A DNA stretch of 64,000 nt from Patescibacteria group bacterium. Lineage in GTDB: Bacteria; Patescibacteriota; Minisyncoccia; Phycocordibacterales; SBAW01. The notes beneath the pieces are model-generated. The model did not search any database. It had not been told where the DNA came from and saw only the letters and a program-made list of their open reading frames with translations. The stretch lies in the NCBI GenBank assembly GCA_019752125.1, contig JAIEMM010000006.1:6120-70119 (forward strand), read 5' to 3'. Below, piece by piece: positions 7,751 to 55,379 of this stretch. Numbering within the stretch: the first letter of the stretch is position 1; the number at the start of each line of letters is the position of its first letter. Both the position numbers and the translations under genes were made by a program.

Positions 7751-8074
7751 AGCGAACTTTTTTACCCTTATTGAAGGGTCTGTAGTGGGATGCTTTAAGA
7801 TAAGCCTATTGGGTCCTCGCCCTGCAGTTTCAGCAATTAAATGGCTTTGTTAAGCCACTTCATCTATCGTTCATCTGTTACTAACTAACTATATAAAAGG
7901 AGGGGGGAGGGTCAACTTGACGACCCGTGAACTGTGGACAATGGTTGGGCGGGCCCGGAAATATCCACCTATACAAGGCTATATTTAGATGAAGGAACAC
8001 TATTTACAGGTGTGGAAAGCTGTATTCTAGTGTTATTCCTAGGGGAAATCTGAGTCTCGGGGTACTTTATAGAG

Positions 8075-9973
8075 ATGTCTGTTCACGAAGGCCTAAACGA
8101 AGCTCAAAAGACGGCCGTTACCTCAATTGAAGGACCAGTACTTGTAATCGCAGGAGCTGGGGCAGGGAAAACCCGCGTTATCGCTCACCGAATTCTAGAA
8201 ATCGTACGCAAAGGCACCCCTCCGGAGCAAATTTTAGCTATCACGTTCACCAACAAAGCTGCCTCAGAGATGCGTGAGCGCGTTTTAGGTCTTGTCGGAG
8301 ACGCTGGGGTACCCTTCGTTTCAACTTTTCACTCTCTCGGTCTTCAGATAATCAAAGAAAATGCGAAGCTGCTTGGGTATAAGCGTACGCCTGTTATTTA
8401 TGACAGGGCCGACTCTCTACGCGAGGTAAAAGCAGCGCTCAAACAGATCGGCACTGAAGAAATCGAGCCTCGCTCAGCGTTGGGTACGATTTCCAAACAA
8501 AAAGGGCAGGGGGTTGTCGCCGACGCGTTTGCTGAAAGTGCGGCGACGTCGCGCGACCGGCTTATCGCACAGGTGTGGGTTATATACGAACAGGCACTCA
8601 AAAAAGATGGGGCGGTAGATTTTGATGATCTTTTGCTTCGCTCGATGCGACTACTCCGCGACAACGAGGAAGTTCGAAAACATTACCAACAGCGTTGGAC
8701 CCATATACATATAGACGAATACCAAGACACAAACTCGGTACAGGCCACGATGGCAGAAATGTTAGTAGGGCCGCAAAAAAATATTTGTGCGGTGGGAGAC
8801 ATCGACCAAACTATTTACGGTTGGCGCGGGGCTGAGATCGCAAACATGCTTATGTTTGAAAAAAAGTTTCCTGGTGCAAAAATAATTTTGCTTGAAGAAA
8901 ACTATCGTTCGACCAAAACAATTCTTGCAGCAGCAAACGAGGTTATTGCAAAAAATGTCTATAGGCGCGAAAAAAATCTCTATACAAAAAATATTGATGG
9001 GGAACCTCTTGGCATCTACCAGGCCTTTGATGAAACAGACGAGGCGGGTTTTATTGCGCGAAAAATAAAAGAGGGGGTGAGAGAGGGTAGAAAGCCCAAG
9101 GATTTTTGTGTGCTCTACCGCGCCAACTTCCAGTCACGCGCTATTGAAGAGCAGTTGCTCGCTGCTGATATTCCATACCAAGTGCTGGGCACACGATTCT
9201 TCGAACGTAAAGAGGTTAAAGATGTTTTGTCGTTTATAAAAACTGCGCTGTTTGAAACACCCGCAGACCTCGCTCGTATTGCAAACGTTCCACCGCGAGG
9301 CATAGGGAAGGTAACCCTGCTCAAACTTCTCAGTGGTAAAGAACAGGAACTTACAGGTGCAGTGCGTGAAAAAATTCACTCACTCCATCTACTTATACAA
9401 AAAATAAAAATGGGGGCAGAGGAATTAAAACCATCTGAGCTCGTGCGCTTCGTCATAACAGAGTCTGGGCTTGAGCGAATGATGAAAGAGGACAAACTTG
9501 AAGGGCCGGAACGGCTTGAAAACTTGCGCGAATTAGTTTCACTTGCGGCCAGATATGATCTGGCCGCCCCGAGCAACGTCGAGGGGCTGCATCTATTCTT
9601 AGAAAACGCAGCGCTTCAAAGTGACCAGGATGAACTTAAACAAGATTCAAATGCAGTGCGTTTAATGACTGTCCATGCTTCGAAAGGCCTTGAATTTCCT
9701 TATGTATTTATCACCGGCCTCGAAGAGGGTTTGTTCCCATACGAACGCATGGGTGGAGATGGTGAAGACCGAGATGACGAAGAAGAGCGTCGCTTAATGT
9801 ACGTTGCCATAACTCGCGCAGAAACAAAGGTGTTTCTTACGTTTGCTTCCTACCGCACCGTCTTTGGTTCAAAAAATTCAACCATCCCTTCAAAATTCCT
9901 CTCTGACATTTCAGACAGCCTCGTCTCCTGGGAAGCGCCTGAACGTATTGGCAGAACTATATATTTGGATTAG
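8075..9973 (+). CDS. uvrD: UvrD/PcrA/Rep-family ATP-dependent DNA helicase (compact, 632 aa)
   Basis: Helicase motifs Q/I (LNEAQKTAV…AGAGAGKTRVIAHR), Ia (AITFTNKAASEMRER), II (HIDEYQDTN) and a C-terminal VTRAETKVFL. Confidence 0.9.
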   Translation: MSVHEGLNEAQKTAVTSIEGPVLVIAGAGAGKTRVIAHRILEIVRKGTPPEQILAITFTNKAASEMRERVLGLVGDAGVPFVSTFHSLGLQIIKENAKLLGYKRTPVIYDRADSLREVKAALKQIGTEEIEPRSALGTISKQKGQGVVADAFAESAATSRDRLIAQVWVIYEQALKKDGAVDFDDLLLRSMRLLRDNEEVRKHYQQRWTHIHIDEYQDTNSVQATMAEMLVGPQKNICAVGDIDQTIYGWRGAEIANMLMFEKKFPGAKIILLEENYRSTKTILAAANEVIAKNVYRREKNLYTKNIDGEPLGIYQAFDETDEAGFIARKIKEGVREGRKPKDFCVLYRANFQSRAIEEQLLAADIPYQVLGTRFFERKEVKDVLSFIKTALFETPADLARIANVPPRGIGKVTLLKLLSGKEQELTGAVREKIHSLHLLIQKIKMGAEELKPSELVRFVITESGLERMMKEDKLEGPERLENLRELVSLAARYDLAAPSNVEGLHLFLENAALQSDQDELKQDSNAVRLMTVHASKGLEFPYVFITGLEEGLFPYERMGGDGEDRDDEEERRLMYVAITRAETKVFLTFASYRTVFGSKNSTIPSKFLSDISDSLVSWEAPERIGRTIYLD

Positions 9974-9988
9974 TGTGCATACAACGCT

Positions 9989-10765
9989 ATGTATAAGAAG
10001 AAATCTCTCGGACAGAATTTTTTGAAAAGCCCGGCATATTTGCAGGCTATTGTTGATGCCGCGGGCGTGCAGAAAGGGGACTTGGTGCTTGAGATCGGGC
10101 CAGGGGAGGGCGCTCTTACAAAAGAACTTCTTGAGCGTGGAGCAACGGTGGTTGCGGTTGAAAAAGACCACAGGCTTATTCCTATGCTCCACGTAACATT
10201 TGATACACAAATTTACAGCAAACAACTTCAAGTAATAGAAGGGGATGCTCTAGAACTTAACGCGCACGAATTACTTGGAAAGAAAGAATTTAAACTCGTC
10301 GCAAATATTCCGTACTACATTACGGGAGCACTGCTTAAAAAATTCCTTTCAGAGGAAACTGTCCAGCCAAGCACTCTTGTATTTTTAGTTCAAAAAGAAG
10401 TTGCGGAACGAATCTCTAAAAGTAAAAAGGAGAGTATTTTATCTCTTTCAGTAAAAGTATACGGGGACGTGGTGTATGTAAAAACTGTTCCACGCGGTGC
10501 ATTCAGCCCAGCTCCTGAAGTTGATTCTGCAATTTTGCTCGTTAAAAATGTTTCAAAAAAGAATTTTCAAAACGAAAAAGAAGAGCAGCGTTTTTTTACA
10601 CTTGTACGTGCAGGATTTTCACAAAAACGAAAGAAGTTGAAAAACAATCTTGCGGGGGTGCTTGGTTCAGAAACTGCTGCGCGCATGGAAGCGGCGGGAA
10701 TTCCGCAAGACGCACGTGCTGAAGATGTTGCCTTAGAGCAGTGGCTTACGCTCACTAAGGTCTAG
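9989..10765 (+). CDS. rsmA: 16S rRNA (adenine1518/1519-N6)-dimethyltransferase
   Basis: KsgA signature (LGQNFL…LEIGPGEGALT…NIPYYIT). Confidence 0.9.
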   Translation: MYKKKSLGQNFLKSPAYLQAIVDAAGVQKGDLVLEIGPGEGALTKELLERGATVVAVEKDHRLIPMLHVTFDTQIYSKQLQVIEGDALELNAHELLGKKEFKLVANIPYYITGALLKKFLSEETVQPSTLVFLVQKEVAERISKSKKESILSLSVKVYGDVVYVKTVPRGAFSPAPEVDSAILLVKNVSKKNFQNEKEEQRFFTLVRAGFSQKRKKLKNNLAGVLGSETAARMEAAGIPQDARAEDVALEQWLTLTKV

Positions 10766-11273
10766 GGAGTAGGCTTTGGTTTGCCCACTGCATGCGTTCT
10801 CCAAGAAGTGGGGGAACGGGTATCCAATATGGATAGAAAGGTATCTGGCAGCTAAATGGTGCTGTTGGAATAGAAGGGGGCGGACAGCAGAAGTATGGGA
10901 TGTCTGCTATCCCTAATATTTGTTGCCCCACAATGTATGGGGGAGGATCCGGGTTAGGAGAAGGAGGGTATAGAGGGAGCAACCCAGGAGCCGGGACACC
11001 TCGCAAGGTGGCCGGTGTCCATATATAGAACGTGTTCTTTGTGGCAGGGGCCGGAACAATCGTTACAAACTCTGCAGGTCCAGCAGAGCTTGTACACGGA
11101 ACAAATGCCGCTATTTTGCCTCCAAAGGAGAGGCCGCTCGCAGATGCCGACGCCACGACCGGTGTAACTAAGAGCGTGAGCGAAAAAATTGAGGAAACAA
11201 TGGAACTTAGAATGCTCATATCCATATTATACTGTAGAGAATGGATACGGGCCGATATCTCCCAAGTACGCAA
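10755..11273 (-). CDS. hypothetical Pro-rich secreted/membrane protein (start possibly 11228)
   Basis: ORF convergent with rsmA. Internal Met followed by a hydrophobic signal-like segment (MSILSSIVSSIFSLTLLVTPVVASASA) and a proline-rich C-terminus. Its 5' end overlaps the start of the + strand gene at 11241, so the start is uncertain. Confidence 0.35.
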   Translation of the reverse strand: MRTWEISARIHSLQYNMDMSILSSIVSSIFSLTLLVTPVVASASASGLSFGGKIAAFVPCTSSAGPAEFVTIVPAPATKNTFYIWTPATLRGVPAPGLLPLYPPSPNPDPPPYIVGQQILGIADIPYFCCPPPSIPTAPFSCQIPFYPYWIPVPPLLGERMQWANQSLLPRP

Positions 11274-12134
11274 TTTTCTCTTATAGCCATCTCACTATTT
11301 CTTTCGGCAGGCCTTGTGTTTGCTGCAGAATATATAGGTACGCCTTCCACAAGCTCACTTGCGGTAGGCGCCGCACGTGTACAGACACCAGTAGCCGAAG
11401 GCGACTGGAAGTCTTCACTTGAAACTGTGCAGAAAAATTCTGGTATTTCGCTGCCTGCTGCGCCTGACCAAAATACAGTGGAGGCACTTTTGCAGGCCGC
11501 GCAAAGCAATAATCTCACAGACAGTGTGTCAAAAAGCTTATTTGTAAACTTAGTCAACGCTAAAGGGCAGGGGCTCGGTGCCGACATACCAACACAAGAC
11601 CAAATAGTGGCCCAGGCTCTCTCCCAGGTGCCTTCCTCAGTTGGAACAAAAACCTATTTTTCAGAAGACCTTTCCCTTACGGACAACTCATCTGCGTCAC
11701 TGCACGCCTACGGCAATGCCGTAATGGCAATTCTGCAGAAAAATTCTAACCAAGAATATGCAAAAACACTCGTTATCCTCGACGCCATCACAACTAAAAA
11801 CGATGGGGCACAGCTTGAGCTACTAAAACCTATCCAAAAAACCTATCAACATATAGCAGCCGAGCTATTGGAAACACCTGTACCAAAAATGCTCGTCCCT
11901 TTCCATCTGCAGCTTCTAAACGATTTTGAAAATATAGCCGGAACCTACGATAAGTTTACATCGCTCGTTGGTGACCCCCTCAGTGGAATTGCGGCAATAC
12001 AGCAATATAGAACACTCACGCAGGATGCAGGGCAAATGTTCATAAACATCGCACAAACTTTCCAGAAGAACGATATAATTTTCACTAAGGACGAGCCAGG
12101 AGCGACGTGGGCTATTCTTCTGCAATCGCAGTAA
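11241..12134 (+). CDS. hypothetical N-terminally membrane-anchored protein (first gene of the T4SS-like operon)
   Basis: N-terminal TM (FSLIAISLFLSAGLVFAA) followed by an extracytoplasmic domain. It ends 6 nt before the next gene. Confidence 0.5.
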   Translation: MDTGRYLPSTQFSLIAISLFLSAGLVFAAEYIGTPSTSSLAVGAARVQTPVAEGDWKSSLETVQKNSGISLPAAPDQNTVEALLQAAQSNNLTDSVSKSLFVNLVNAKGQGLGADIPTQDQIVAQALSQVPSSVGTKTYFSEDLSLTDNSSASLHAYGNAVMAILQKNSNQEYAKTLVILDAITTKNDGAQLELLKPIQKTYQHIAAELLETPVPKMLVPFHLQLLNDFENIAGTYDKFTSLVGDPLSGIAAIQQYRTLTQDAGQMFINIAQTFQKNDIIFTKDEPGATWAILLQSQ

Positions 12135-12140
12135 ATCACA

Positions 12141-14291
12141 ATGAATAAAAAATTCGTTTATATCATCCTCATCGCCCTGGCAATCTTTCTTTTAGTTGCG
12201 CTGCTATGGTGGTGGTTTTTGCGGAGGGAAGGGAGTGCAATTCAAAATACCGGCACTTTTGGCACAGCCCAAAATGCTGCACAAAATAAAGGCTCTTCAA
12301 ACGGAACCTCAACCAACGTCGGCACTCCATTGTCTGGACCGGATGTGTCTATGGATGTGGGGCAAACAAACACTCCACTTGGGGGTATTGGGCAAAATAC
12401 AGTAAATGGCCAAATACCGACACAAGATGGTGGGGCCACTACTGTTGGTCCTATCACTGTTGGGAACCCTGTCATAGTCGGCACAGTAGGAGTGCCGGAT
12501 GTTGTGTGGCTTTCAGGTGACCCTGCAAGTACGACACAGGGTGGGACAACAAACGGCGCAGGTACCGTATTTAACCCAACCGCTATAAATCAAATTGCCC
12601 AATCAAACCCAACTGGCAATGGTGGAATTTTGCCTAACATCGGATACAACGGGTACGGACAGCAAACAAACAATAGTGGCTCAGCGCTAGGCTCTATTGG
12701 AATAGCAGCAGGGGTCGGCGTTGTTAGTTGCGCGATAGTTCCTGCACTTCAAGAAGTAGCATCAAAATTATTTGGAGCAAAAGAGGCCGCTCCACAAGCA
12801 ACAGCTCAGGCTTCAGTGACCGCCGGACAAACTGGGGTAGCTGCTTTAAGCGTCTCCACGATTGACCTAGGAGCAAATACACGTTTAGGTTTGGGTTTTA
12901 CAGGACTCACAGCATCTATTGCAGGGAATCAACAAGGTCAACAAACCATCGACCAGTTTATGGGCTGCATTACGCGCAACGTAGCAAAAATTATGTTGCA
13001 GCAAATCACCAGCAGCGTTGTGAACTGGATTAACTCTGGGTTCAACGGCTCTCCAGCATTCGTGCAAAATCCAACACAGTTTATTCAAAAAACTACTGAT
13101 GTCATCGCCGGTCAATATATCCAAAGTAGCGCGCTTTCGTTTTTATGCAGCCCATTTCAGTTGCAGGTGAAGATTGCTATTGCCCAAAGCTATGCAAACC
13201 GCAACGCGGCTTCGTGTACCCTGACACAAGTTTCCAATAACATAACAGGCTTTATGCGAGGATCCTTCAGCTCGGCGGGAGGTTGGCCAGCATTCCTTTC
13301 ATTTACATCTGTCCCTACCAATAACCCGTATGGTGCATTTATGTACGCATCTGCTGGCTTACTTACCGCTCAAAACAAAGCCCAAAACCAAGTACGTACA
13401 GATTTACTGCAGGGCAGCGGATTCCTTTCCTTCCAGCAAAAAGTGGCAGGAAGCTGTGTAACTACGTCTACGCCACCACCACCAAGTCTTAACAAGTCGA
13501 TAACCGCAAAAACCAGCTCTACTCCAAACTCTTCGCAGCAGCTCTATGAGGTGTGTGACTACGTTACTGCAACTCCAGGAAAGGTTATTGCCGACTCTTT
13601 GGGCGCGACACAAAAAAGCACTCTGGACCAACTTACGCTCGCAAAAAGTTTCGATGAAATAATAAGTGCTCTCATTAATCAGCTGATGACACGTACTCTG
13701 CAAAGCGGACTTTCAAATTTGAGTGGACAGAATGGCTACGCAAGTAACTTCTATACAGTCGACCAGCAACAAGCACAGGGCGCACAACAAACACTACTTG
13801 CTCAAATGCAAAGCGACACAGCAACTGCAAGCCAGTACGGTAGTGTGCAGCAGGGAAGTATCCAAGATATACAAAGTGCCCAAAACCAACTTAACAATGC
13901 ATATAACTGCTGGAACAACGTCGCGCAAACAAGTACGAGCACGACGATAACAGCTTCAGTAAAGACACAAGCTCTCACAAACGCAGCAAGTGCATCTACA
14001 ACTCTAGGTTCACTTAACACGACGGTTGACTCATATAACGATAGAATTACAAAGGTTAACGTTGCAATAGTCGCACTTCAACAACTAGAAAGCCGCGTAC
14101 TTTCTGCCTCGTCGGGCTCTGAAGTATCTGCTATCCAAAATGACTACAATGCCGCTAAAGCTTCTGGGCAATTCCCAACTGCAGCTGATGTAACAAATGC
14201 CCAGCAAAACCGCGTAACGTTGCAAAGCCAAATGTCGACCATAAGCTCACAGGCGAACGATTCCCTTCAACAATGCAATGCTATTTTCTAA
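12141..14291 (+). CDS. large membrane-anchored surface protein with extended G/T/N/Q/S-rich low-complexity region
   Basis: 716 aa with an N-terminal TM (FVYIILIALAIFLLVALLWWWFL), about 150 aa of low complexity (GTFGTAQNAAQNKGSSNGTSTNVGTPLSG…) and a Q/N/S-rich C-terminal coiled-coil-like region. It overlaps the downstream gene by 14 nt. Confidence 0.6.
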   Translation: MNKKFVYIILIALAIFLLVALLWWWFLRREGSAIQNTGTFGTAQNAAQNKGSSNGTSTNVGTPLSGPDVSMDVGQTNTPLGGIGQNTVNGQIPTQDGGATTVGPITVGNPVIVGTVGVPDVVWLSGDPASTTQGGTTNGAGTVFNPTAINQIAQSNPTGNGGILPNIGYNGYGQQTNNSGSALGSIGIAAGVGVVSCAIVPALQEVASKLFGAKEAAPQATAQASVTAGQTGVAALSVSTIDLGANTRLGLGFTGLTASIAGNQQGQQTIDQFMGCITRNVAKIMLQQITSSVVNWINSGFNGSPAFVQNPTQFIQKTTDVIAGQYIQSSALSFLCSPFQLQVKIAIAQSYANRNAASCTLTQVSNNITGFMRGSFSSAGGWPAFLSFTSVPTNNPYGAFMYASAGLLTAQNKAQNQVRTDLLQGSGFLSFQQKVAGSCVTTSTPPPPSLNKSITAKTSSTPNSSQQLYEVCDYVTATPGKVIADSLGATQKSTLDQLTLAKSFDEIISALINQLMTRTLQSGLSNLSGQNGYASNFYTVDQQQAQGAQQTLLAQMQSDTATASQYGSVQQGSIQDIQSAQNQLNNAYNCWNNVAQTSTSTTITASVKTQALTNAASASTTLGSLNTTVDSYNDRITKVNVAIVALQQLESRVLSASSGSEVSAIQNDYNAAKASGQFPTAADVTNAQQNRVTLQSQMSTISSQANDSLQQCNAIF

Positions 14292-16881
14292 CTCTCTGAC
14301 ATACCTAAAAGGAAAAAATCTGCGACGCGTCGTAGCGGGGGTTTTACTGTTACTTGTATTTTTATTGCCTGTTCAAAATGTGCTGACTACACCGGTCGTG
14401 TCTGTGGCACATGCCCAGGACGCAGCATTCTGCGACAACGCAAGTACGTGTCTCACCAGTATTGTGTATCTGTTTGCCGTCTATATACCAACAAACTTTG
14501 CGTATGCCGCTGGGTATCTTTTTAACGCTGCCCTCCAACTTGCCTTAAATAGTGCCTCGTATGCATTGAACTTTCTTTCGCTGGGGTGGACAATCGTGCG
14601 TGATATCGCAAATCTGACATTTATCTTCATCCTTATATACATCGCGTACATAATCATCATGCGTGCCGAGAGCTCTGGAACGATGCGCATGCTTGCGTGG
14701 GTTGTTGCGATGGCGCTGCTTATTAACTTCAGCTTCTTTATAACTCGCATAGTTATCGATGCGGGGAATATTCTTTCAGTGCAGTTCTACAATGCCATAA
14801 GTATCCCAAACACAATACCTTCTCCCTTAAGCACTCAACAATGTCCACCAAACTGTATCAAAGACCTCACAGGGGGCATCATGGACGCAGTAAAGGTCCA
14901 AAGTATTTTGGGAGATAAGTCATTTAATGCTTTCATTAATGACCCTAAGCAAAAAGATGGTATCGGCACCTTTAGTACAAACGTGCTTGTGCAAACGCTG
15001 GTATTCGTTTCAGTTGGAATATTTTTGTCACTACTTGGGTTTGTATTCCTTATCGTTGGTATAAAATTCATCGTCCGTGTTGTAGTGCTGTGGCTTACCA
15101 TAGTAGCCTCTCCGCTTGCGTTTGCAGCCCACGCGCTTCCAAGCAACAAAAAAGTTATGGGATATTACCAGATGTGGCAGGACAATCTCATACAGTCGGC
15201 ATTTTACCCCGCAGTATTCTTGTTTTTGTTCTTCATAATGAACCTATTCTTGGTGGCGTTGGCCGGCGACAAGGGCCTTGTACCAAATATTTTCAATTCT
15301 ATTGCCCAGATAAATAACAGTAGCGCGAGCGCCGCCCAAGCTGGCATAAGCGTTATCGCAAACATCGGGGTCCGCATGGGCTTGGTGATAGTGCTTCTGT
15401 ACTTTGCAATGAAAGCATCGGACGCCTTCAGTTCGATGGGGAGCGGAATGGCAAATAGTATTGCGAGCTGGACAGGCAGCAAGGCTGCAAACATGACCGC
15501 TGGAACTTCTTCATGGCTTGCTCGAAACAGCGCTGGGCGGCTTGCAAACGCAGCTGCGCGCAGCGCGACAGTGCGTGACTGGGCAGCCAAAAACCCTCTC
15601 TATGGAGGACGCCTGGTGTCTGGCGCGCTTAACAAAGCCGCAACCTCAAGTCTTGATATACGCGGTATTGGAGGTCTAAAAAGTCTTGTGGGTAAGGCTG
15701 GTTTTGACCTGAGTGGCCCAGGCGGTAAGGGTGGGTATAGGCAGCAAGAGGCTGACAGAGCAAAAGCGGCTGAAAAATTTGCAAAAGGTCTTAAGAGTGA
15801 TGCTATATACATAAAGCAAAATGCATTAGCTGTTGGGAAAGCGGACCAGGAAAGAATTAAAAGAGAGGGAGTTGCAGCTGCAATTCGCGAATACCAAGAA
15901 GCATATGACTCAAAAAGAAAGCCCGGAGAACAGGCGTTCCATGAGCGCATGCAAAATCTTGAGAAGGCTCGGGTCGAAGCTGAGAGAGCTGCTGCTGCTT
16001 TTAAGGCTTCTGGGGATAAAACAGGAGAAGCTGCTGCTCAATCTGCCCTTATGGCTAATAATCGCCAGATAGCCGAGCTGCAGTCGGCGAGTGCTAAAAA
16101 ATATACGGATGCTGAGAAAGCATTGGCCGAACTCGCAGAAAAAGGAGAATCTGCGGCTCTGAAAAAGATTGGTGAAAATAGGATTAAAGACATGGATAAG
16201 AAACGTATCAATGAAGCTGCAGACTACGAAGAGAGCCGCCGTTTTGGAAATATGTACATGCCTTCAGTTGGGAATATTGAGGGCGCGATGAAAATGAGTA
16301 AGGTTGCGAGTGGCAAAACAGATGTGAGTGAGGCGGCAGAGCACCTCTTGCATGCAATACACGAGCAAAATGGAGGTGGACATGGAAAAGGCCATGACGA
16401 AGAAAAAAAGCAGCCAGAAAAGAAAACGGAAAAGAAGGGTGATGCAAAACCTAAAGATGAGCATCCACCTGATCCTCACCACCTGACCTTAAAAGGCATT
16501 CAAGCAGCGGCTCAACACTACGGGAGCAATGAGGCTGCAGGCGATGCAATTATGGAGAAAATCAAACGATTAGATTTGAGAATGAGAAACGTGCAAGAAA
16601 ACACCTCGTCTCAAGGAGCGCAAATGGCCGGCGTTCAGCAGTCTCTAAACAATCTGCAGCGCCAACGACCATCCACACCAACAAGCCCAACAACATTTGA
16701 AACCAGCTCAACTGGGCAAGGAACACTGCGTCCGAAAACAGGCACAACAGTAGTTGGAGGAGCAGATGAAGGAAGAAACCGAAGAATGCCGACTGACAGG
16801 GGAGAACAGGGCGCCCAACGCACAATAGACGAGCTCGCAAATTCAACAAACGACAAACAAAATCCACCTGAAGCTGTATAA
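14278..16881 (+). CDS. VirB6/TrbL-like polytopic membrane protein with ~450-aa C-terminal K/E/A-rich coiled-coil tail
   Basis: Signal-like N-terminus and at least 6 hydrophobic helices in the first ~400 aa, the typical TrbL/VirB6 layout. Then a hydrophilic tail (…KAAEKFAKGLKSD…AERAAAAFKASGDKTGEAAAQ…) ending in a His-rich segment (HGKGHDEEKKQPEKK…HPPDPHH). Confidence 0.55.
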   Translation: MLFSNSLTYLKGKNLRRVVAGVLLLLVFLLPVQNVLTTPVVSVAHAQDAAFCDNASTCLTSIVYLFAVYIPTNFAYAAGYLFNAALQLALNSASYALNFLSLGWTIVRDIANLTFIFILIYIAYIIIMRAESSGTMRMLAWVVAMALLINFSFFITRIVIDAGNILSVQFYNAISIPNTIPSPLSTQQCPPNCIKDLTGGIMDAVKVQSILGDKSFNAFINDPKQKDGIGTFSTNVLVQTLVFVSVGIFLSLLGFVFLIVGIKFIVRVVVLWLTIVASPLAFAAHALPSNKKVMGYYQMWQDNLIQSAFYPAVFLFLFFIMNLFLVALAGDKGLVPNIFNSIAQINNSSASAAQAGISVIANIGVRMGLVIVLLYFAMKASDAFSSMGSGMANSIASWTGSKAANMTAGTSSWLARNSAGRLANAAARSATVRDWAAKNPLYGGRLVSGALNKAATSSLDIRGIGGLKSLVGKAGFDLSGPGGKGGYRQQEADRAKAAEKFAKGLKSDAIYIKQNALAVGKADQERIKREGVAAAIREYQEAYDSKRKPGEQAFHERMQNLEKARVEAERAAAAFKASGDKTGEAAAQSALMANNRQIAELQSASAKKYTDAEKALAELAEKGESAALKKIGENRIKDMDKKRINEAADYEESRRFGNMYMPSVGNIEGAMKMSKVASGKTDVSEAAEHLLHAIHEQNGGGHGKGHDEEKKQPEKKTEKKGDAKPKDEHPPDPHHLTLKGIQAAAQHYGSNEAAGDAIMEKIKRLDLRMRNVQENTSSQGAQMAGVQQSLNNLQRQRPSTPTSPTTFETSSTGQGTLRPKTGTTVVGGADEGRNRRMPTDRGEQGAQRTIDELANSTNDKQNPPEAV

Positions 16882-16901
16882 AATACGTTGGACCGATTTG
16901 G

Positions 16902-17546
16902 TTGCGGTACAATATAGACATGCCTGAGGATTCTACGAACTCAACTCAAAATCAAATAGAGCAGCGACTTGCTGAACTGCCGCAAGACGTGCGAGACGCT
17001 ATGCTTTCTGCACAGCTTGGAGAAAATTTGCGTGCAATAGGCCAAAAACATGGTCTCCATATAGACCAAGTTGGTGTATTGGAAGACGAAACCATGCTTG
17101 TGATGCTTGGGTTTTTTGAGCCCGAAGACTTCAACAACCAACTCATCGCACAACTGAGAATTTCTCCCGCTGACGCAGAGGCCATAACGCAGGAGGTGAC
17201 TCAGCAGGTTTTTCTTCCAATTCGGGAATCTATGAAAGCCTTTACGGAATCTAAACGCAAAATTATGTCTGAACCTGCGCAAGTTCGTCCGATCGGTTCC
17301 GTCGAACCGCGGCCCGATCTTGCTCCGGCATCCGCAACAGTTGGGGCCACTTCTACTAACATTCCGATCAGGATTGAAACGCCGCAGCAGAATCCGGTTG
17401 CGCCGCCCCAAGCGGCGTCAGAGGGTTCTGCGCAGGCAAAACCAACAATGCCTCCGATGCCAAATGCAGAAAAAATGCTGACACAAACGACTGTTACTAA
17501 ACCTATCTACAAAACTGACCCGTATCGTGAGCCAATAGAGCCGTAG
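16902..17546 (+). CDS. hypothetical protein in T4SS-like operon
   Basis: 214-aa ORF tightly spaced between the VirB6-like and PrgI-like genes. Hydrophilic, Pro/Ala-rich C-terminus, no TM. Confidence 0.45.
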   Translation: MRYNIDMPEDSTNSTQNQIEQRLAELPQDVRDAMLSAQLGENLRAIGQKHGLHIDQVGVLEDETMLVMLGFFEPEDFNNQLIAQLRISPADAEAITQEVTQQVFLPIRESMKAFTESKRKIMSEPAQVRPIGSVEPRPDLAPASATVGATSTNIPIRIETPQQNPVAPPQAASEGSAQAKPTMPPMPNAEKMLTQTTVTKPIYKTDPYREPIEP

Positions 17547-17577
17547 CCTCAGAAATTTTGCTATATACTAAAGGGGA

Positions 17578-17979
17578 ATGCGATACCAAGTTCCTCAATT
17601 TATTGAAGTTGAAGATAAAATATTCGGGCCACTAACCCTGAAACAGTTCGTGTATTTGGCAGGCGGAGGAGGTCTCTGTCTCGCATTTTTTACACTGCTT
17701 CCTTTTTTTGTGTTCGTCATACTCGCCATCCCAGTTATGGGCCTCTCGTTGGCTCTTGCGTTTTATCGAGTAAACGACCGCCCTTTTATCACCGCCATAG
17801 AACACGCATTTGGTTTCTACACTAACAGCAAACTCTATTTGTGGAAGCAGCGCCCGCCGGAACTCGTGCAAACACAAGCTACCGCGCAACCAATCACTCA
17901 GGCAATGGTTCCTAAACTTTCAGAAAGCCGCCTCAAAGACCTTGCGTGGTCGTTGAACATTAAAGAGAAAGCGGAGTAA
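17578..17979 (+). CDS. PrgI/VirB3-like small membrane protein
   Basis: 133 aa. Motif (FGPLTLKQFVYLAGGGGLCLAFFTLLP…) and a two-helix topology immediately upstream of VirB4, as seen for PrgI/VirB3 family proteins. Confidence 0.5.
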   Translation: MRYQVPQFIEVEDKIFGPLTLKQFVYLAGGGGLCLAFFTLLPFFVFVILAIPVMGLSLALAFYRVNDRPFITAIEHAFGFYTNSKLYLWKQRPPELVQTQATAQPITQAMVPKLSESRLKDLAWSLNIKEKAE

Positions 17980-17983
17980 TACT

Positions 17984-18649
17984 ATGGCCGACGCACCTAT
18001 AAAAGCACAAGCAACGCAGGATTTCGTACCTATAAAAGAAGTACGGAATGGCATTGTCATACTTAAAGACGGCTCAATGAGAGCGCTTCTTATGGCATCT
18101 TCCATAAACCTTGCGCTTAAATCACAGGATGAGCAAAATGCCATCATCGGCCAGTTCCAAAACTTTTTAAACTCACTTGAGTTCACCGTTCAGTTTTTCG
18201 TCGAGAGTCGCGACCTCGACATCCGTCCCTACCTCGCAATTTTGGAAGAGCGCTATGTTGCAGAACTCGATGACTTGATGAAAATCCAAATCCGAGAATA
18301 CATAAGCTTTATCAAAGATTTCACGGCCCGCTCAAACATCATGTCGAAAAACTTCTTTATCGTAGTTCCATACGACCCAGCGCTTGTTGGAAGAGGGAAG
18401 GGGGTTGCAGGAGCGCTCAGCGCACTCGTTCCATCAAAAAACTCCAGCAACAACGTGCTCACTGACGAACAGTTTGAACAATATCGTACCCAGTTAGAAC
18501 AACGTGTTTCTGTTGTCGAACAAGGTTTGGTGCGCACAGGCGTGCGCGTCGCTCCGCTTGGGACGGAAGAAATTATCGAGTTATTCTATAAGTTGTTTAA
18601 CCCGGGAGAACTTGAGAAGCCTCAGCAGGTAACTCAGATCGTTCACTAA
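17984..18649 (+). CDS. virB4: VirB4/TraE-family conjugal-transfer ATPase, N-terminal domain as a separate ORF
   Basis: The conserved VirB4 N-terminal block (FVPIKEVRNGIVILKDGSMRALLMASSINLALKSQDEQNAIIGQFQNFLNSL) is present. The stop at 18649 is followed 6 nt later by the ATG of the ATPase-domain ORF. Confidence 0.6.
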   Translation: MADAPIKAQATQDFVPIKEVRNGIVILKDGSMRALLMASSINLALKSQDEQNAIIGQFQNFLNSLEFTVQFFVESRDLDIRPYLAILEERYVAELDDLMKIQIREYISFIKDFTARSNIMSKNFFIVVPYDPALVGRGKGVAGALSALVPSKNSSNNVLTDEQFEQYRTQLEQRVSVVEQGLVRTGVRVAPLGTEEIIELFYKLFNPGELEKPQQVTQIVH

Positions 18650-18655
18650 CACTAT

Positions 18656-20482
18656 ATGGCACTTTTTGGACTCATAAAATCAAAAGACGAGGGTCAGGTG
18701 CCTGCAATGGCGCCCGTCATGCCTGAGCAGATCTATCGCCAAGGCGTATTGGAATTGCAGGACGTTATCGCACCTTCAGCGCTTAAAATCACCTCTCGCG
18801 AGCTTAATCTTGGCGACAAAATCGCACGAACATTTTTTGTTATGTCATATCCGCGCACGTTGGTGGATTCGTGGTTTGCTCCAATAATTAACCTCGACCG
18901 CGTTCTCGATATTTCTGTGTTTATCCATCCGATAGACTCAGCTGAAATCTTGAAGAAATTCCAGAAAAAAGTAGCTGAGGTGCAAAGCCAGATTATTTCT
19001 CGTGAAGACAAGGGCCTTGTGCGTGACCCTATCTTGGACACTGCCTACAGAGACTTGGAAGATTTGCGCGACCAGCTCCAACAAGCAGAGGAACGTATTT
19101 TCGATGTTGGCGTTTATATAACGGTATACGGCAAAACAATAGAGGAACTTGATAAGACCGAGAGTGAAATAAAGTCGATGCTTGAGAGCCGTCTTATTTA
19201 TGTAAAACCTGCATTATTCCAACAAGTACAAGGTTTTAGGAGCACTCTCCCGCTTGCAACTGATGAACTAAACGTCAATTCAAAACTAAATTCTTCGCCG
19301 CTCTCCTCTATATTCCCGTTCGTGTCCTTCGATCTCACATCTGACAAAGGCATCTTGTATGGTGTGAACCGCCACAACGCATCACTGGTGTTGTTCGATC
19401 GCTTTAGTTTGGAAAACTATAACTCGGTAATTTTTGCAAAATCAGGTTCTGGTAAATCATACGCAACAAAGCTGGAAATTCTGCGCACACTTATGTTCGA
19501 TACAGAAGTAATTGTTATCGACCCAGAGCGCGAGTACGAATTTTTGAGCCAGACTGTCGGCGGGCGCTACTTCAACATTTCACTTACATCAGAACACCAC
19601 ATTAACCCTTTCGATTTGCCTATACCTCGCGAGGATGAAAACCCTGCAGATATTCTCCGCTCAAATATTGTGTCCCTTGTTGGGCTGTTCCGTATTATGC
19701 TCGGAGGCCTTAGCCCTGAAGAAGATGCGATTATAGACAAAGCGATCACTGAAACCTACGCGCTTAAAGACATTACTGTCGACTCTAACTTCGCTGAAAT
19801 AGAGCCCCCTCTTCTTTCTGACTTCGAAACAGTGCTTTCCGGCATGGATGGCAGCGAATCCTTGGTGCAGCGACTTTCTAAATATACAAAAGGTACGTGG
19901 TCTGGGTTTATTAACCAAGCAACAAACGTCGACATTAATAAAAAGTTCGTTGTGTTCTCCGTTCGTGACATGGAAGACGACCTTAAACCGGTCGCCATGT
20001 ATATCATTACGCACTATATATGGAACGCGGTGCGCAAAAACCTCAAGAAACGTCTCCTTGTTATCGACGAAGCGTGGTGGATGATGAAATCTGAGGACAC
20101 AGCGTCCTTCTTATACAGCATGGCAAAACGCGGTCGTAAATATTACCTAGGCCTTGCAACTATTACCCAAGACGTTGATGACTTCTTAAAGTCTCCGTAC
20201 GGGCTGCCGATGATCACCAACTCATCTATCCAAATATTGCTCAAGCAGTCGCCAACAACAATAGATAACCTTCAAAAAACCTTTAATCTCTCAGATGAGG
20301 AGAAGTATTTGTTGCTTGAGTCGGACGTAGGGGAGGGGATATTCTTTGCTGGCCTTAAACACGTTGCTATAAAAGTGATTGCCTCGTACACAGAGGACCA
20401 GATAATCACCTCCGACCCGTCACAAGTGCTCGCTATCCGCAAACAGCAAGCTGACGCTGCTGAAGGCCGAGGTACAATATAG
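18656..20482 (+). CDS. virB4: VirB4/TraE-family conjugal-transfer ATPase, C-terminal AAA ATPase domain
   Basis: Walker A (FAKSGSGKSYATK), Walker B (LLVIDEAWWMM) and the conserved VirB4 C-terminal blocks (…GLATITQDVDDF…, …IQILLKQ…). Confidence 0.8.
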   Translation: MALFGLIKSKDEGQVPAMAPVMPEQIYRQGVLELQDVIAPSALKITSRELNLGDKIARTFFVMSYPRTLVDSWFAPIINLDRVLDISVFIHPIDSAEILKKFQKKVAEVQSQIISREDKGLVRDPILDTAYRDLEDLRDQLQQAEERIFDVGVYITVYGKTIEELDKTESEIKSMLESRLIYVKPALFQQVQGFRSTLPLATDELNVNSKLNSSPLSSIFPFVSFDLTSDKGILYGVNRHNASLVLFDRFSLENYNSVIFAKSGSGKSYATKLEILRTLMFDTEVIVIDPEREYEFLSQTVGGRYFNISLTSEHHINPFDLPIPREDENPADILRSNIVSLVGLFRIMLGGLSPEEDAIIDKAITETYALKDITVDSNFAEIEPPLLSDFETVLSGMDGSESLVQRLSKYTKGTWSGFINQATNVDINKKFVVFSVRDMEDDLKPVAMYIITHYIWNAVRKNLKKRLLVIDEAWWMMKSEDTASFLYSMAKRGRKYYLGLATITQDVDDFLKSPYGLPMITNSSIQILLKQSPTTIDNLQKTFNLSDEEKYLLLESDVGEGIFFAGLKHVAIKVIASYTEDQIITSDPSQVLAIRKQQADAAEGRGTI

Positions 20483-20484
20483 CC

Positions 20485-21165
20485 ATGCATGCGGTGCGCA
20501 ACACGTTGCTAATTCTCTTTGCAATCCTCTTGGACTTGCTACAGGCAGGCATCTCTGCGGGTTTATTTTTCATGGGTGCTTTCCCAGGCACAGTTGGGGG
20601 CGCCACAGGAGGCTGTATTCTTGGCGCAAAAGTTGCGGGCCAAATCGGCTGCGCAATTGGTGGAGCGGTAGCTGGAGTTGCTGGAACTGCTCTAAACGCT
20701 GCTGCCGCAGCAACCCTTCCTTTTGCAATTGGACTTGGGTTTGCGGTAAATTTTTGCCTCGACGTAACTTTAGGGCTTGTTCTTACAGCATTCCTCATCT
20801 GGCTAGGTATGTATTACAAAGGAATTGGTATCACGGGCTTTATTGTTGAACTTGTCCCAGGGCTTGCTATTGTCCCAGGCTGGACAGCTATGACCATAGC
20901 GTGCGTCGTGCGAAAAACTGCTGAAGAGAAGCTGCTCGCAAGTTCCTCAGGAGGCTTGTTTACTACGTTTATTACAGCTGGGGTAGCGGGAGCTGGCACT
21001 TTTGCAACGTTTGCAATCAATCAGGGCACTGCGCGCAGAGCTCGAGGAATAGATATGTTTGCACAGGAGGAACAAGTCTCCCGTGATTCTGAGAAAAAAC
21101 AATTTGTTTCAACTGAACTGAAAAATATCGATGGTATCCGACCTAAAACATCATATGCAGCGTAA
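20485..21165 (+). CDS. Gly/Ala-rich polytopic membrane protein (T4SS-like operon)
   Basis: 226 aa with 4–5 hydrophobic helices separated by Gly-rich stretches (GGATGGCILGAKVAGQIGCAIGGAVAGVAG). Tight spacing: 3 nt after virB4. Confidence 0.5.
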   Translation: MHAVRNTLLILFAILLDLLQAGISAGLFFMGAFPGTVGGATGGCILGAKVAGQIGCAIGGAVAGVAGTALNAAAAATLPFAIGLGFAVNFCLDVTLGLVLTAFLIWLGMYYKGIGITGFIVELVPGLAIVPGWTAMTIACVVRKTAEEKLLASSSGGLFTTFITAGVAGAGTFATFAINQGTARRARGIDMFAQEEQVSRDSEKKQFVSTELKNIDGIRPKTSYAA

Positions 21166-22186
21166 ATTTTTTATACTTCTTGCAGTACTTTTCTTGAGCG
21201 TAGCTCCGCCAGCTGGCAGAATGCATGCTCAAACCTCGTTACCAGACCCAGTGCAGTACACTGTCATACCCGAGACTCCAGGACCTAACCAACAAGTAAG
21301 TATCGAGGTAAGTGGGGTGGGGACGTTTTTGGGTAATGCCACTATTACCTGGCAAGTGAACGGAAAAACTGTTCCGGGGGCAACGGGCCGAACTTTTACC
21401 TTTACCACTGGAGGTATTGGTACACCTAGCACAATCCATCTGACTATAAATTCAGCGACGCAAGGACTCATCTCTCACGATTTTGTCTTTAACCCTTCTG
21501 TTATTAACTTAGTCTGGGAAGCAGATACCTCTACGCCGCTTTTGTATAAAGGTAAGGCGCTGTATAGCGCAGGCTCTGGCCTGCGTGTTGTGGCTTTCCC
21601 AACAGTGATGATCGGAAAGGCACTTGCGCCTGCAAGCAAACTTTCATTCCAGTGGTCACGAAACGACACCCCGGACCCTTCTTCATCTGGGTTAGGGAAA
21701 AATATATTTTCATTCTCTGGGGATCAGTTAAATACTGAGGAAAATGTTGCAGTTGATGTATATTCCAGCGGAACAAAAGTAGGGCAGGGGCGCATCACAA
21801 TACCGGCCTCAAAACCCGCGGTTATTATGTATTCTGTGGATCCTCTTCGTGGAACATTACTTGGTACAGCATTTCAAACCGGCTTCGCGCTTCCTCAAAC
21901 AGAGACGACTCTGAAAGCAGAACCATACTTCTTTTCAAATACGAGCTTCGCGCGCGGGCAGATAAAATATAACTGGTCATTGGGCGGGCAAGAGACCACG
22001 GGCCCCGATGCCGCAAAAGGTTTACTTACCCTTAGACAAACTGGGTCTGGCAGCGGCTCTGCAAATATTTCTGTAGATGTGCAAAATAATGAGAGTGACA
22101 AACTAGTTCAAGCAGCCAGCATCAACCTCAACCTTCTGTTCGGACCACAAACTGGCTCATCCATCCTTAACCTCTTTGGCTTATGA
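21131..22186 (+). CDS. secreted hypothetical protein (signal peptide, repeat-like Ig-type content)
   Basis: N-terminal signal peptide (FFILLAVLFLSVAPPAGRMHAQ), then all-beta-like Ser/Thr/Gly-rich sequence. Overlaps the upstream gene by 35 nt and the downstream gene by 4 nt. Confidence 0.5.
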   Translation: MVSDLKHHMQRKFFILLAVLFLSVAPPAGRMHAQTSLPDPVQYTVIPETPGPNQQVSIEVSGVGTFLGNATITWQVNGKTVPGATGRTFTFTTGGIGTPSTIHLTINSATQGLISHDFVFNPSVINLVWEADTSTPLLYKGKALYSAGSGLRVVAFPTVMIGKALAPASKLSFQWSRNDTPDPSSSGLGKNIFSFSGDQLNTEENVAVDVYSSGTKVGQGRITIPASKPAVIMYSVDPLRGTLLGTAFQTGFALPQTETTLKAEPYFFSNTSFARGQIKYNWSLGGQETTGPDAAKGLLTLRQTGSGSGSANISVDVQNNESDKLVQAASINLNLLFGPQTGSSILNLFGL

Positions 22187-22869
22187 AAAGAAATTTCCTT
22201 ATAGTAGGCATTCTCACCTTGAGCCTTCTAGGTACTTTTACTGTACCAACAGTGAGTGCCCAAACAGCCCCCGGTTGTTATACAAATGACGAACGTCGTA
22301 CATACCAAGGTATGCCGGACGCAAATGGTTCCTGTGCCAAGTACCCAGACTCATCGCTTATGAGTTCTAGTGGTAGACCTGGGGCTCCTGTAGATAATGG
22401 TCTTTCTTACACGCCCCTGGAACCAATACCCGGCCAAAGTAGTAGTCAACCTAATTTCTGCGAATTGTTAAATATTTTGTTTAAAGTGCTTATCTATCTA
22501 GGAGGGATGGTGGCTGTCTTATTCCTAGTACTTGGTGGTATCGCCTATATGGTTTCAGAAGTGGTGGACAAACGTTCTGCAGCACGCGAGCGAATAAAAT
22601 CATCCGTGATTGGGCTACTTATACTTCTCTCTTCGTATCTCATACTATTCACCGTAAATCCAAATCTCGTAAACGCATGTAATCTTATCAGCCCAACTAC
22701 TACTGGCGTAATATCTGCGACACCTGACCCAGCAACAAGTCTTGTTGCTGGATGCACAAGTAACGGCGGGAGAATATATCTGTACAGTAATTGCGCGGAC
22801 CTAATTAAATATCAGGCTCCTGGGAAAACATGTGAGAACATTTCAACGAACATGTATTGCGTAAAATAA
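22183..22869 (+). CDS. candidate VirB2/TrbC-like pilin with Cys-containing C-terminal extension
   Basis: Signal peptide and a ~60-aa hydrophilic segment, then two hydrophobic helices separated by a short basic loop (…LIYLGGMVAVLFLVLGGIAYMV-SEVVDKRSAARERIKSS-VIGLLILLSSYLILFTV). This is the canonical T4SS pilin topology. It is followed by an ~80-aa C-terminal domain with 4 Cys. Confidence 0.4.
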   Translation: MKRNFLIVGILTLSLLGTFTVPTVSAQTAPGCYTNDERRTYQGMPDANGSCAKYPDSSLMSSSGRPGAPVDNGLSYTPLEPIPGQSSSQPNFCELLNILFKVLIYLGGMVAVLFLVLGGIAYMVSEVVDKRSAARERIKSSVIGLLILLSSYLILFTVNPNLVNACNLISPTTTGVISATPDPATSLVAGCTSNGGRIYLYSNCADLIKYQAPGKTCENISTNMYCVK

Positions 22870-24092
22870 ATATGTTTAAAAAAATTACCATTTATATATT
22901 CTCAGGGCTCGCCTTACTTGCTGTCGGGGTTGGGGTGTTTTTCTTTTTCCAAACAAACAAACAAACCACTGGGCAAACTTCCTCTGGTGGGCTCTTTGGC
23001 TTCGGAAGCACTGTGGCAAATGTTCCGGGCGGGGGAGACACCCCAAATACACCGCAAGCGGGTATATCAACGCTGCAGAATATATTTAAAATCGCAGACG
23101 GCCCTATTGCCGGGGCAGCGTTTACACAAACCTTTAATCCAACAACAACACTGGCTCGCTACGTGCGAGCAGATAACGGCCACGTGCTTGATATACCTAT
23201 AGGAGTATCTGGGGCTGTAGCACGCGCTGTATCGAACGTCACTGTTCCAGGAATTACATCCTCAGTCTGGACAACATTCGGCAGCTCAACAGTTATGCAG
23301 TATGTGGACTCAGGCATTGTTAAAACCATGTATGTGGCCTTTGCCACCACTAGTTCAACCGCCACCAACTCCGCAGTAACTCCATCTCGTATACGTTTCC
23401 TCCCTAACGGCATTGTGTCGCTCGCCCTCGACCCAAAAGATACGCGCGTCGCATATCTACTCTTTAACAGTAGCGGTGGCGTGGATGGATATATTTCTAA
23501 CCTCGACGGTACGAACGTAAAGAATGTATTTTCATTACCTCTATCCCAAGCAACCCTCTCGTGGCCTTCACCGACGACCCTCCTCGTCCAAACAAAAAGC
23601 GCCTTTAGTGTTCCTGGTATTGCGTACTCAGTAAACGTGGCCACTGGTGCACTGTCTCCACTCCTGTACGCACCGGGCCTTTCTTCAACAGCAAATAAAA
23701 CGTTTACAAAAGTTGTGTACCAAACAAGCGCAGGCAATAAAACAACAACCTACTCCCACGACATTGCCACAGGTAAAGACGCACCTCTTGCAAATAATCC
23801 ACTACCTGAAAAATGTGTCTGGAGTACGCTTCCAGCCACCGACGCATACTGTGCATTACCGCTGGATGCAGTTTCTCCAAACTATATAGACCTGTGGCAC
23901 CAAGGCTTGGTCCAAACAGCAGATGCAATTGTTACTCTTGATACAAACACTGGTGTAGGAACTGTTATCACACTGCCAGGAGATGGGGGAGCTAGCGCGG
24001 GCATAGAACAACTTGTGCTCTCGCCAGATGGAAAATACTTAATGTTTATTACACGTGGCGACCAATCTCTCTGGGGAGTAAAGCTGCGCTAA
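22857..24092 (+). CDS. membrane-anchored beta-propeller-like protein (last gene of operon)
   Basis: N-terminal TM (ITIYIFSGLALLAVGVGVFFFF), Gly-rich linker, then beta-rich repeats ending LVLSPDGKYLMFITRGDQSLWGV, which is TolB/WD40-like. Confidence 0.5.
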   Translation: MRKINMFKKITIYIFSGLALLAVGVGVFFFFQTNKQTTGQTSSGGLFGFGSTVANVPGGGDTPNTPQAGISTLQNIFKIADGPIAGAAFTQTFNPTTTLARYVRADNGHVLDIPIGVSGAVARAVSNVTVPGITSSVWTTFGSSTVMQYVDSGIVKTMYVAFATTSSTATNSAVTPSRIRFLPNGIVSLALDPKDTRVAYLLFNSSGGVDGYISNLDGTNVKNVFSLPLSQATLSWPSPTTLLVQTKSAFSVPGIAYSVNVATGALSPLLYAPGLSSTANKTFTKVVYQTSAGNKTTTYSHDIATGKDAPLANNPLPEKCVWSTLPATDAYCALPLDAVSPNYIDLWHQGLVQTADAIVTLDTNTGVGTVITLPGDGGASAGIEQLVLSPDGKYLMFITRGDQSLWGVKLR

Positions 24093-25790: not shown

Positions 25791-25948
25791 AGATAACTAG
25801 GACAATACCACAACTGATTTGATAAGGAAACCCCGCCAAGGTCGGACCTTGTCAAACCACGCTTATGCACAGTTCTTCCACAATGTTCTGCACATATAGT
25901 TTTTTTGACGGCAAGGTCGTGACCGCGTATTCTTACACCACTAACCCC

Positions 25949-44394: not shown

Positions 44395-44467
44395 ACAATA
44401 ATCATACTCCAAGTTGGAGATGTTCAGGAAGTTGCTTTTTAAGGAAATATTGCGTAGTATCTTGTGC

Positions 44468-44710: not shown

Positions 44711-44716
44711 AGAAAA

Positions 44717-44744
44717 AGACCGCCTGATGAGGGTGGTCTTTTTA
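44717..44744. terminator. bidirectional rho-independent terminator (agaccgcc-tgatgag-ggtggtct + TTTTT)
   Basis: 8-bp stem (one G·U) followed by a T-run, directly after rpsT. The stop of the convergent minus-strand ORF lies in the T-tract. Confidence 0.6.
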
Positions 44745-50099: not shown

Positions 50100-50100
50100 T

Positions 50101-52277: not shown

Positions 52278-52280
52278 CAT

Positions 52281-55379
<3,099 letters not shown>

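Follow-up and report, generated by a model that had tools for sequence, protein, structure and literature searches.

Patescibacteria carry type IV secretion systems (T4SSs) that a review places on a new branch of their superfamily (PMC12857230). Of 3,035 Patescibacteria genomes, 2,417 have a VirB4 homologue; almost all of these proteins form a monophyletic clade nested in MPF_FATA, and genes for TrsD, PrgI/VirB3, VirB6, and a VirB2-like protein (Pfam ID PF18895) lie near virB4 (PMC12102498). The same study describes dnaA, dnaN, rnpA, and ksgA as neighbors of the Paceibacteria T4SS, finds relaxases to be rare and carried by few Patescibacteria, reports that type IV coupling proteins (T4CPs) are mostly encoded elsewhere, and proposes the import of DNA or other macromolecules (PMC12102498). 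The T4SS of Southlakia, together with its pilin array, is essential for epibiotic growth according to transposon sequencing (Tn-seq) and has no recognisable coupling or relaxase proteins (PMC10633639); this essentiality is independent of ComEC competence (PMC12857230). Here, we analyse a gene cluster at positions 11241 to 24092 of a 64,000-nucleotide stretch of DNA from a Patescibacteria contig (GenBank accession no. JAIEMM010000006.1, positions 6,120 to 70,119 of the forward strand), which is called the window below. A preliminary description, made from the DNA letters alone, had read the cluster as a chromosomal, nonconjugative T4SS-like locus of the kind described for the Candidate Phyla Radiation/Patescibacteria.

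Our analysis arrives at the same reading, as the closest VirB4 relatives all belong to Patescibacteria and the gene set is that of the published system. We put the probability at roughly 85% that the cluster is a chromosomal, origin-proximal Patescibacteria T4SS that serves to attach to or exchange with a host and not to move plasmids. Because both the gene set and the origin-proximal setting match the published descriptions (PMC12102498 and PMC10633639), the locus re-identifies a known system and adds no new kind. It shares with the Paceibacteria T4SS (Quinonero-Coronel et al. 2025, Microb Genom, PMC12102498) a VirB4 with a separate TrsD, a PrgI/VirB3, a VirB6 candidate, and a PF18895 pilin, as well as the chromosomal location next to ksgA/rnpA/dnaA/dnaN with no relaxase or T4CP nearby. 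Nothing differs in kind from that system, and the VirB6 candidate of the window is missed by a standard single-sequence hidden Markov model (HMM) search. A search of the text of that study, which covered TolB and propeller proteins and not the four-helix-bundle, helical-bundle, DPYRE-tail, and immunoglobulin-like (Ig-like) genes, found no mention of them.

The cluster consists of 11 co-directional open reading frames (ORFs) on the plus strand, named g1 to g11 in their order (Table 1), all of which are intact. They are spaced by −35 to +31 nucleotides, including four overlaps. The previously given cluster borders proved exact, whereas the count of twelve genes did not hold: we find 11 ORFs, and the largest gap, being 31 nucleotides, rules out a twelfth. 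A Kyte-Doolittle scan detects hydrophobic segments in 8 of the 11 products and none in those of g4, g6, and g7, so that three products, and not one as had been stated, fall outside the membrane or signal-peptide proteins. From the window sequence alone, Pfam and NCBIfam leave seven of the 11 products without a family assignment.

The best-supported component is g7, the only ATPase motor found in the cluster. Its product matches the NCBIfam model conju_CD1110 (E = 3.3e-116) with 389 bits, compared with a curated cut-off of 325, over model positions 185 to 733 of 752, and the Pfam family P-loop_TraG/AAA_10 (E = 1.3e-27), confirming it as a VirB4. The previously quoted Walker A motif FAKSGSGKSYATK (residues 260 to 272) and Walker B motif DEAWWMM (residues 471 to 477) are both present. 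The preceding gene, g6, ends 6 nucleotides upstream of virB4, and its product matches the NCBIfam model TrsD (E = 7.5e-10, below the curated cut-off of that model), aligning to positions 2 to 116 of conju_CD1110 and positions 101 to 233 of VirB4_plasma. A profile of the g6 family has no match among VirB4 structures in the Protein Data Bank (PDB). In 77 of 80 related loci, g6 is likewise a separate ORF of 209 to 227 residues, with a mean column identity of 65%. Thus, g6 covers the N-terminal part and g7 the later part of the CD1110 model. The split of VirB4, already named in the preliminary description and here into a TrsD piece and an ATPase, is real and ancestral.

Two further parts named earlier are borne out by matches above the curated cut-offs. 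The product of g5 matches the Pfam family PrgI (E = 1.9e-9; 38.3 bits, with the cut-off at 27) and has a transmembrane (TM) hairpin at residues 23 to 66; in other T4SSs, PrgI/VirB3 tethers VirB4 to the membrane. The product of g10 matches the T4SS_pilin family (Pfam ID PF18895) with E = 3.2e-9 and 37.2 bits (cut-off, 26.6) at residues 94 to 154; it also matches the NCBIfam pilin-like model Mbov_0395 (E = 2.7e-4). This VirB2-like pilin carries the expected signal peptide and two TM segments (residues 92 to 129 and 137 to 161), with Cys-rich extensions at both termini and eight Cys residues.

The VirB6/TrbL-like assignment of g3 is weaker. The window protein alone has no Pfam match at E ≤ 0.1 and no NCBIfam match of its own, whereas a profile of its membrane domain, built from 46 homologues, finds the VirB6 protein TrwI of R388 (PDB ID 7o3v_F) as its best PDB match (E = 8.3e-4 over 218 residues), and five of the 46 homologues match the Pfam family TrbL, with a best E value of 1.4e-4. 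About six TM segments within residues 1 to 420 precede a tail of some 440 residues that is charged and of low complexity. This layout agrees with an "extended VirB6" type known from the literature (PMC12857230), and by topology and position g3 weakly suggests such a protein.

Table 1. Genes of the T4SS cluster, with predicted products, window coordinates, and the evidence used
Gene	Predicted product	Position	Strand	Evidence
g1	Bitopic membrane protein, extracytoplasmic four-helix bundle	11241..12134	+	TM 9-33, AlphaFold2 model
g2	N-terminal TM, Gly/Thr/Asn-rich spacer, Cys-containing domain, helical bundle	12141..14291	+	
g3	Polytopic membrane protein, tentatively extended VirB6-like	14278..16881	+	TM scan, family profile
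g4	Soluble DPYRE-tail protein	16902..17546	+	No TM, no known family
g5	PrgI/VirB3-like small membrane protein	17578..17979	+	Pfam PrgI
g6	TrsD-like detached N-terminal VirB4 segment	17984..18649	+	NCBIfam TrsD, VirB4 models
g7	VirB4 ATPase, MPF_FATA (CD1110) type	18656..20482	+	NCBIfam conju_CD1110, Pfam P-loop_TraG
g8	Gly-rich polytopic membrane protein	20485..21165	+	TM scan
g9	Secreted beta-rich protein with Ig-like domain(s)	21131..22186	+	Hydrophobic N-terminus, Pfam matches of homologues
g10	VirB2-like T4SS pilin	22183..22869	+	Pfam PF18895, TM scan
g11	Membrane-anchored TolB-like beta-propeller (last gene)	22857..24092	+	TM 7-33, family profile

One protein of the operon is 100% identical to the NCBI entry K2Q00_01525 from a "Patescibacteria group bacterium", and the nearest named relative is a Candidatus Adlerbacteria metagenome-assembled genome (MAG). 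A scan of one genome per species gave at least 560 loci with VirB4 relatives, of which the best 80, ranked by VirB4 similarity, served for comparison; their VirB4 proteins are 75 to 91% identical to that of the window and all come from Patescibacteria MAGs. The gene order uvrD-ksgA-[g1 to g11]-jag-yidC-rnpA-dnaA-dnaN is the same in the roughly 30 Patescibacteria MAG loci listed, and the core order also agrees with Southlakia. The median identity to the window protein is 78% for VirB4, 61% for TrsD, and 52% for PrgI, compared with 54% for DnaA and 39% for DnaN, and it drops to 26 to 35% for g1, g2, g3, g9, g10, and g11. VirB4 is more conserved than DnaA (25865 to 27295) in all 54 loci holding both. 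The conservation is sharply bimodal, with a frozen motor and fast-evolving surface parts, the lineage-specific envelope proteins g1, g2, g9, and g11 among them. The choice of loci somewhat inflates the contrast, but the pattern is clear and argues against a decaying mobile element.

The setting is equally that of a chromosomal locus. The cluster is flanked by uvrD-ksgA and jag-yidC-rnpA-dnaA-dnaN, with ksgA 475 nucleotides upstream and jag convergent with g11 at a distance of 3 nucleotides. We scanned essentially all non-overlapping window ORFs of at least 110 residues with Pfam, finding upstream the housekeeping genes pnp, dksA, comM/yifB, an M23/LysM peptidase gene, uvrD, and ksgA, and elsewhere jag, yidC, rnpA, dnaA, dnaN, the gene for PBP1, tyrS or trpS (a class Ib aminoacyl-tRNA synthetase), ruvABC, pilB, polA, and a murein ligase gene. 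None of the scanned ORFs has a VirD4/TcpA, relaxase, integrase, or plasmid replication domain, in agreement with the absence of these genes noted before, and P-loop_TraG occurs in the window in VirB4 itself and in no coupling protein. No VirB7, VirB9, or VirB10 homologues were found. The guanine-plus-cytosine (GC) content of the cluster is 0.45 to 0.48, equal to that of the flanks. There is no integrase, repeat, or tRNA gene at the cluster borders, and the six tRNA genes of the window (Rfam, ARAGORN) all lie away from it. We take the cluster not to be a mobile element because T4CP, relaxase, and integrase genes are absent from the 64 kb, the GC content is that of the flanks, and the gene order is fixed.

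The Southlakia epibionticum ML1 locus SEML1_0006-0019 (Wang et al. 2023, Cell, PMC10633639) has the same core order of VirB6-like protein, PrgI, TrsD-like protein, and VirB4, and it also shares PF18895 pilins, a location near the chromosome start, an adjoining Ig-like exported protein, and the lack of a recognisable coupling protein or relaxase. It differs in encoding six pilins in tandem, an NTF2-like (VirB8-like) protein, and a lysozyme/peptidase, whereas the window cluster encodes a single pilin and neither a hydrolase nor an NTF2-like protein but has, in addition, the DPYRE-tail protein and a TolB-like propeller. Essentiality has been demonstrated for the Southlakia system only. Among the monoderm MPF_FATA systems, we compared the CD1110-type VirB4 of Clostridioides difficile CTn2, TrsD/TrsE of Staphylococcus aureus pGO1, PrgH-PrgI-PrgJ of Enterococcus faecalis pCF10, and Mbov_0395-0397 of the Mycoplasma integrative and conjugative element (ICE). 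The likeness lies in a VirB4 scoring above the CD1110 cut-off, in TrsD, PrgI, and the Mbov_0395 pilin-like model being the best NCBIfam or Pfam matches, and in a monoderm architecture without VirB7, VirB9, and VirB10. In contrast, the MPF_FATA systems transfer DNA and belong to mobile elements that also encode a relaxase, a T4CP, VirB8-like proteins, and a VirB1 hydrolase, and none of these was found in the window cluster. The diderm R388 Trw and Agrobacterium tumefaciens VirB systems share the functional core of VirB2, VirB3, VirB4, and, tentatively, VirB6, with TrwI as the best solved-structure match to the g3 family, but the window lacks their VirB7/VirB9/VirB10 outer-membrane core, VirB11, VirD4, VirB8, and a clear VirB5.

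For the assembled machine, we suggest that VirB4/TrsD hexamers would dock onto PrgI and VirB6 in the single membrane. ATP hydrolysis would then pull the VirB2-like pilin from the membrane to polymerise a short pilus or conduit through the monoderm wall, while the secreted and anchored accessory proteins may provide an extracellular scaffold or a host-binding tip. Such a machine would serve host-cell contact and macromolecule exchange and not conjugation.

Several points weigh against this interpretation. The VirB6 assignment of g3 depends on marginal E values, the contrast in VirB4 conservation is somewhat inflated by selecting loci on VirB4 similarity, and the membership of VirB4 in the Patescibacteria clade was judged from its nearest relatives and not from a tree. 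VirD4 homologues are encoded elsewhere in most Patescibacteria genomes (PMC12102498), and a T4CP outside the 64 kb is possible. A VirB8-like or VirB1-like fold was not found in the cluster, where g1 and g2 are modelled as helical bundles and g9 and g11 are of the Ig-like and TolB-like types, respectively, with g8 lacking a structure prediction. The function of the cluster is inferred, as are its substrate, its transport direction, and the formation of a pilus. We know of no experiment on any Paceibacteria T4SS.

A dedicated DNA-import machine, resembling the competence-like ComB system of Helicobacter pylori or the crenarchaeal Ced system and working with ComM and a PilB pilus to use host DNA as a nucleotide source, would also be consistent with the absence of relaxase and T4CP genes nearby and with the import of DNA or other macromolecules proposed by the authors of PMC12102498. 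The window does hold a ComM-like ATPase gene and a pilB gene, which the preliminary description had tentatively linked to the cluster as a common DNA-uptake theme. This link finds no support, as both genes share with the cluster the 64 kb and neither adjacency nor a conserved association: ComM (4479 to 6023) is set apart by a HAD hydrolase, the M23/LysM peptidase, UvrD, and KsgA, and the PilB-type ATPase gene (36043 to 37728, minus strand) is isolated between ruvB and tsaE, without neighboring pilin, pilC, pilM, or other pilus genes, housekeeping genes lying between them and the cluster. VirB4 matches the NCBIfam model CedB with E = 2.2e-10, but its 39.8 bits compare with a cut-off of 700 (CedD, 18 bits; cut-off, 600), whereas the conjugative CD1110 model gives 389 bits. 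The ComB-type parts VirB7, VirB9, and VirB10 are absent, and Southlakia can do without ComEC-dependent DNA uptake but not without its T4SS (PMC12857230), which uncouples the T4SS from the competence pathway. A dedicated DNA-import role finds no specific support in this analysis, and we regard it as improbable.

For VirB4, TrsD, PrgI, and the pilin, the greatest similarity is to the conjugation proteins of MPF_FATA type in Firmicutes and Mycoplasma ICEs, and a few Patescibacteria carry relaxases (PMC12102498). This might alternatively point to a conjugative element that has decayed or become cryptic, an ICE remnant with its relaxase, coupling protein, and integrase lost or located elsewhere. 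Against this stand the fixed site between ksgA and yidC-dnaA in the loci of about 30 species listed, the GC content shared with the flanks, and the borders free of integrase, repeats, and tRNA genes. VirB4 is more strongly conserved than DnaA, which is the opposite of decay, and the 11 ORFs are all intact. We consider a remnant very improbable. Still less credible, in our view, is a chance arrangement in which a small VirB4/PrgI/TrsD module merely lies beside unrelated envelope genes, although the seven unassigned products and the sign of at least two transcription starts (see below) could be read in that way. Loci with accessory proteins of only 25 to 35% identity retain the order of g1 to g11, as does a still more divergent genome. 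The gaps do not exceed 31 nucleotides, four genes overlap, and the pilin gene itself lies among the unassigned genes. A single, chromosomal Patescibacteria T4SS for host attachment or exchange is, therefore, the reading that we retain.

The cluster had been described as a single 13-kb operon, which is plausible, but its transcription may have two starting points. The -10-like box TATACT occurs at 11228 to 11233, 7 nucleotides before the g1 start codon, and again at 17564 to 17569, 8 nucleotides before the g5 ATG. A TATA[ACT]T box beginning 11 to 15 nucleotides upstream of the start codon is present in 43% of the g1 and 51% (37/72) of the g5 orthologues, compared with 1 to 6% at the same distance for g2, g3, g4, g10, and g11 orthologues. 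Because these conserved boxes abut the g1 and g5 start codons, they suggest two promoters, leaderless messenger RNAs, and two transcription units, g1 to g4 and g5 to g11. A scan with the sigma-70 consensus was uninformative, giving 10 sites compared with 21 in shuffled sequence and none at the cluster start.

Upstream of g1, a minus-strand gene (10755 to 11219) diverges from the cluster, its start codon being 21 nucleotides from that of g1. It encodes a secreted Pro/Cys-rich protein of 154 residues without a family match and is kept in three close relatives (loci L003, L008, and L002). Because this conserved gene diverges there, the 5' boundary of the cluster is real.

Among the accessory genes, g4 encodes a soluble protein that combines an N-terminal domain, helical, conserved, and some 110 residues long, with a Pro/Ala-rich linker and an invariant C-terminal DPYRE. 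It has no TM segment in the Kyte-Doolittle scan and no Pfam, NCBIfam, or PDB match. The DPYRE motif lies 2 to 4 residues before the stop codon in more than 60 related loci, an observation that covers g4 of the window, loci L001 to L080, and positions 8001 to 8843 of locus L082. An exhaustive search gave a family of 4305 cluster representatives, and 140 of the best 150 end in ..YKxDPY[RH]EPxE. One member with 32% identity, from another genome, occupies the same slot in the order VirB6-like protein, g4, PrgI, TrsD, VirB4 ... yidC, rnpA, dnaA. A literature search for the DPYRE motif found nothing relevant. The C-terminal tail looks like a docking or export peptide, and g4 may accordingly encode an adaptor or a substrate. 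A bolder idea, which we consider unlikely but worth stating, is that g4 represents an unrecognised universal component of Paceibacteria-type T4SSs, either an adaptor docking its C-terminal peptide on VirB4/TrsD or on the VirB6 tail in place of the missing coupling protein or the system's own translocated substrate with a C-terminal export signal. If so, g4 together with the TolB-like propeller, the Ig-like protein, and the helical-bundle proteins would make up a T4SS envelope architecture unlike any solved one.

The structure predictions and family profiles for the remaining accessory genes did not return the VirB8-, VirB5-, or VirB1-like folds that had been looked for. The g1 family is found in Patescibacteria only and has no Pfam match; its AlphaFold2 model is a four-helix bundle, and a VirB8-like fold was rejected for it. 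The g2 protein has a conserved Cys-containing domain at about residues 280 to 530 and a C-terminal long helical bundle in the AlphaFold2 model, and fold searches with it gave non-specific matches only. Eleven of 72 g2 homologues match DUF4141, which we take to be the TraI protein of Bacteroides conjugative transposons, through a signal-proximal N-terminal motif of about 40 residues. A VirB5-like fold was rejected given the long helical bundle and the shortness of this match, and g2 as a VirB5/TraI-like surface protein may serve as a lead, not as a result.

The g8 protein has no Pfam or NCBIfam match. ORFs with two to five TM segments are found at the g8 position after virB4 in about half of the related loci; they are related to each other by jackhmmer and not to the pilin family, so that a second pilin was rejected for g8, which shows no similarity to the g10 family. 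The most consistently present accessory gene is g9, with a tblastn match in 77 of 80 loci. Its product has a hydrophobic N-terminus at residues 13 to 31 (signal peptide), and its homologues match the Pfam families BiPBP_C, an Ig-like beta-sandwich (10/45), and Ig_3 (4/45). Internal repeats were considered for g9 and discarded, pairwise scores being no better than those of shuffles (z ≤ 1.5). Searched against the PDB, the g11 family profile finds TolB propellers (best E = 9.1e-5); a tblastn match is found in 66 of 80 loci, and two Cys residues, C320 and C332, are invariant. Of all these accessory proteins, the leads of note are limited to the DPYRE-tail protein, which is undescribed, and the TolB-like component.

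Further observations concern other parts of the window. An M23 peptidase with two LysM domains is encoded 3.5 kb upstream of the cluster (6683 to 7750, minus strand); the literature assigns M23/LysM-type proteins to the VirB1-like wall hydrolases that accompany virB4 in Paceibacteria. A minus-strand gene (46574 to 47428), at a distance of about 20 kb from dnaA proper, encodes a 284-residue protein with only the DnaA C-terminal helix-turn-helix domain (Bac_DnaA_C, E = 1.9e-11), predicted to be a DnaA-box-binding paralogue. The RuvA ORF (43807 to 45000, minus strand) codes for 397 residues, with the RuvA_N domain beginning only at residue 203, so that either the protein has some 200 extra N-terminal residues or its GTG start is mis-set. 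A type I restriction-modification system (48597 to 55379, plus strand) comprises hsdM, hsdS, and hsdR, with a PIN-domain gene between hsdS and hsdR. The GC content is markedly low, at 0.37, in the 50- to 52-kb bin, where most of hsdS and part of the PIN gene lie, and the GC skew is strongly positive from 50 to 58 kb; this region may have been acquired as an island.

Much of the bacterial diversity that is still uncultivated belongs to Patescibacteria, whose members seem to live attached to other microbes. The origin-proximal T4SS is among the few machines shown to be essential for this attached lifestyle, so far in one Saccharibacterium. The locus described here provides a clean and complete example of the Paceibacteria arrangement, along with a parts list for the genes that have no family here. 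The DPYRE-tail protein, the TolB-like propeller, and the Ig-like secreted protein offer concrete handles on how a T4SS could work without a coupling protein.

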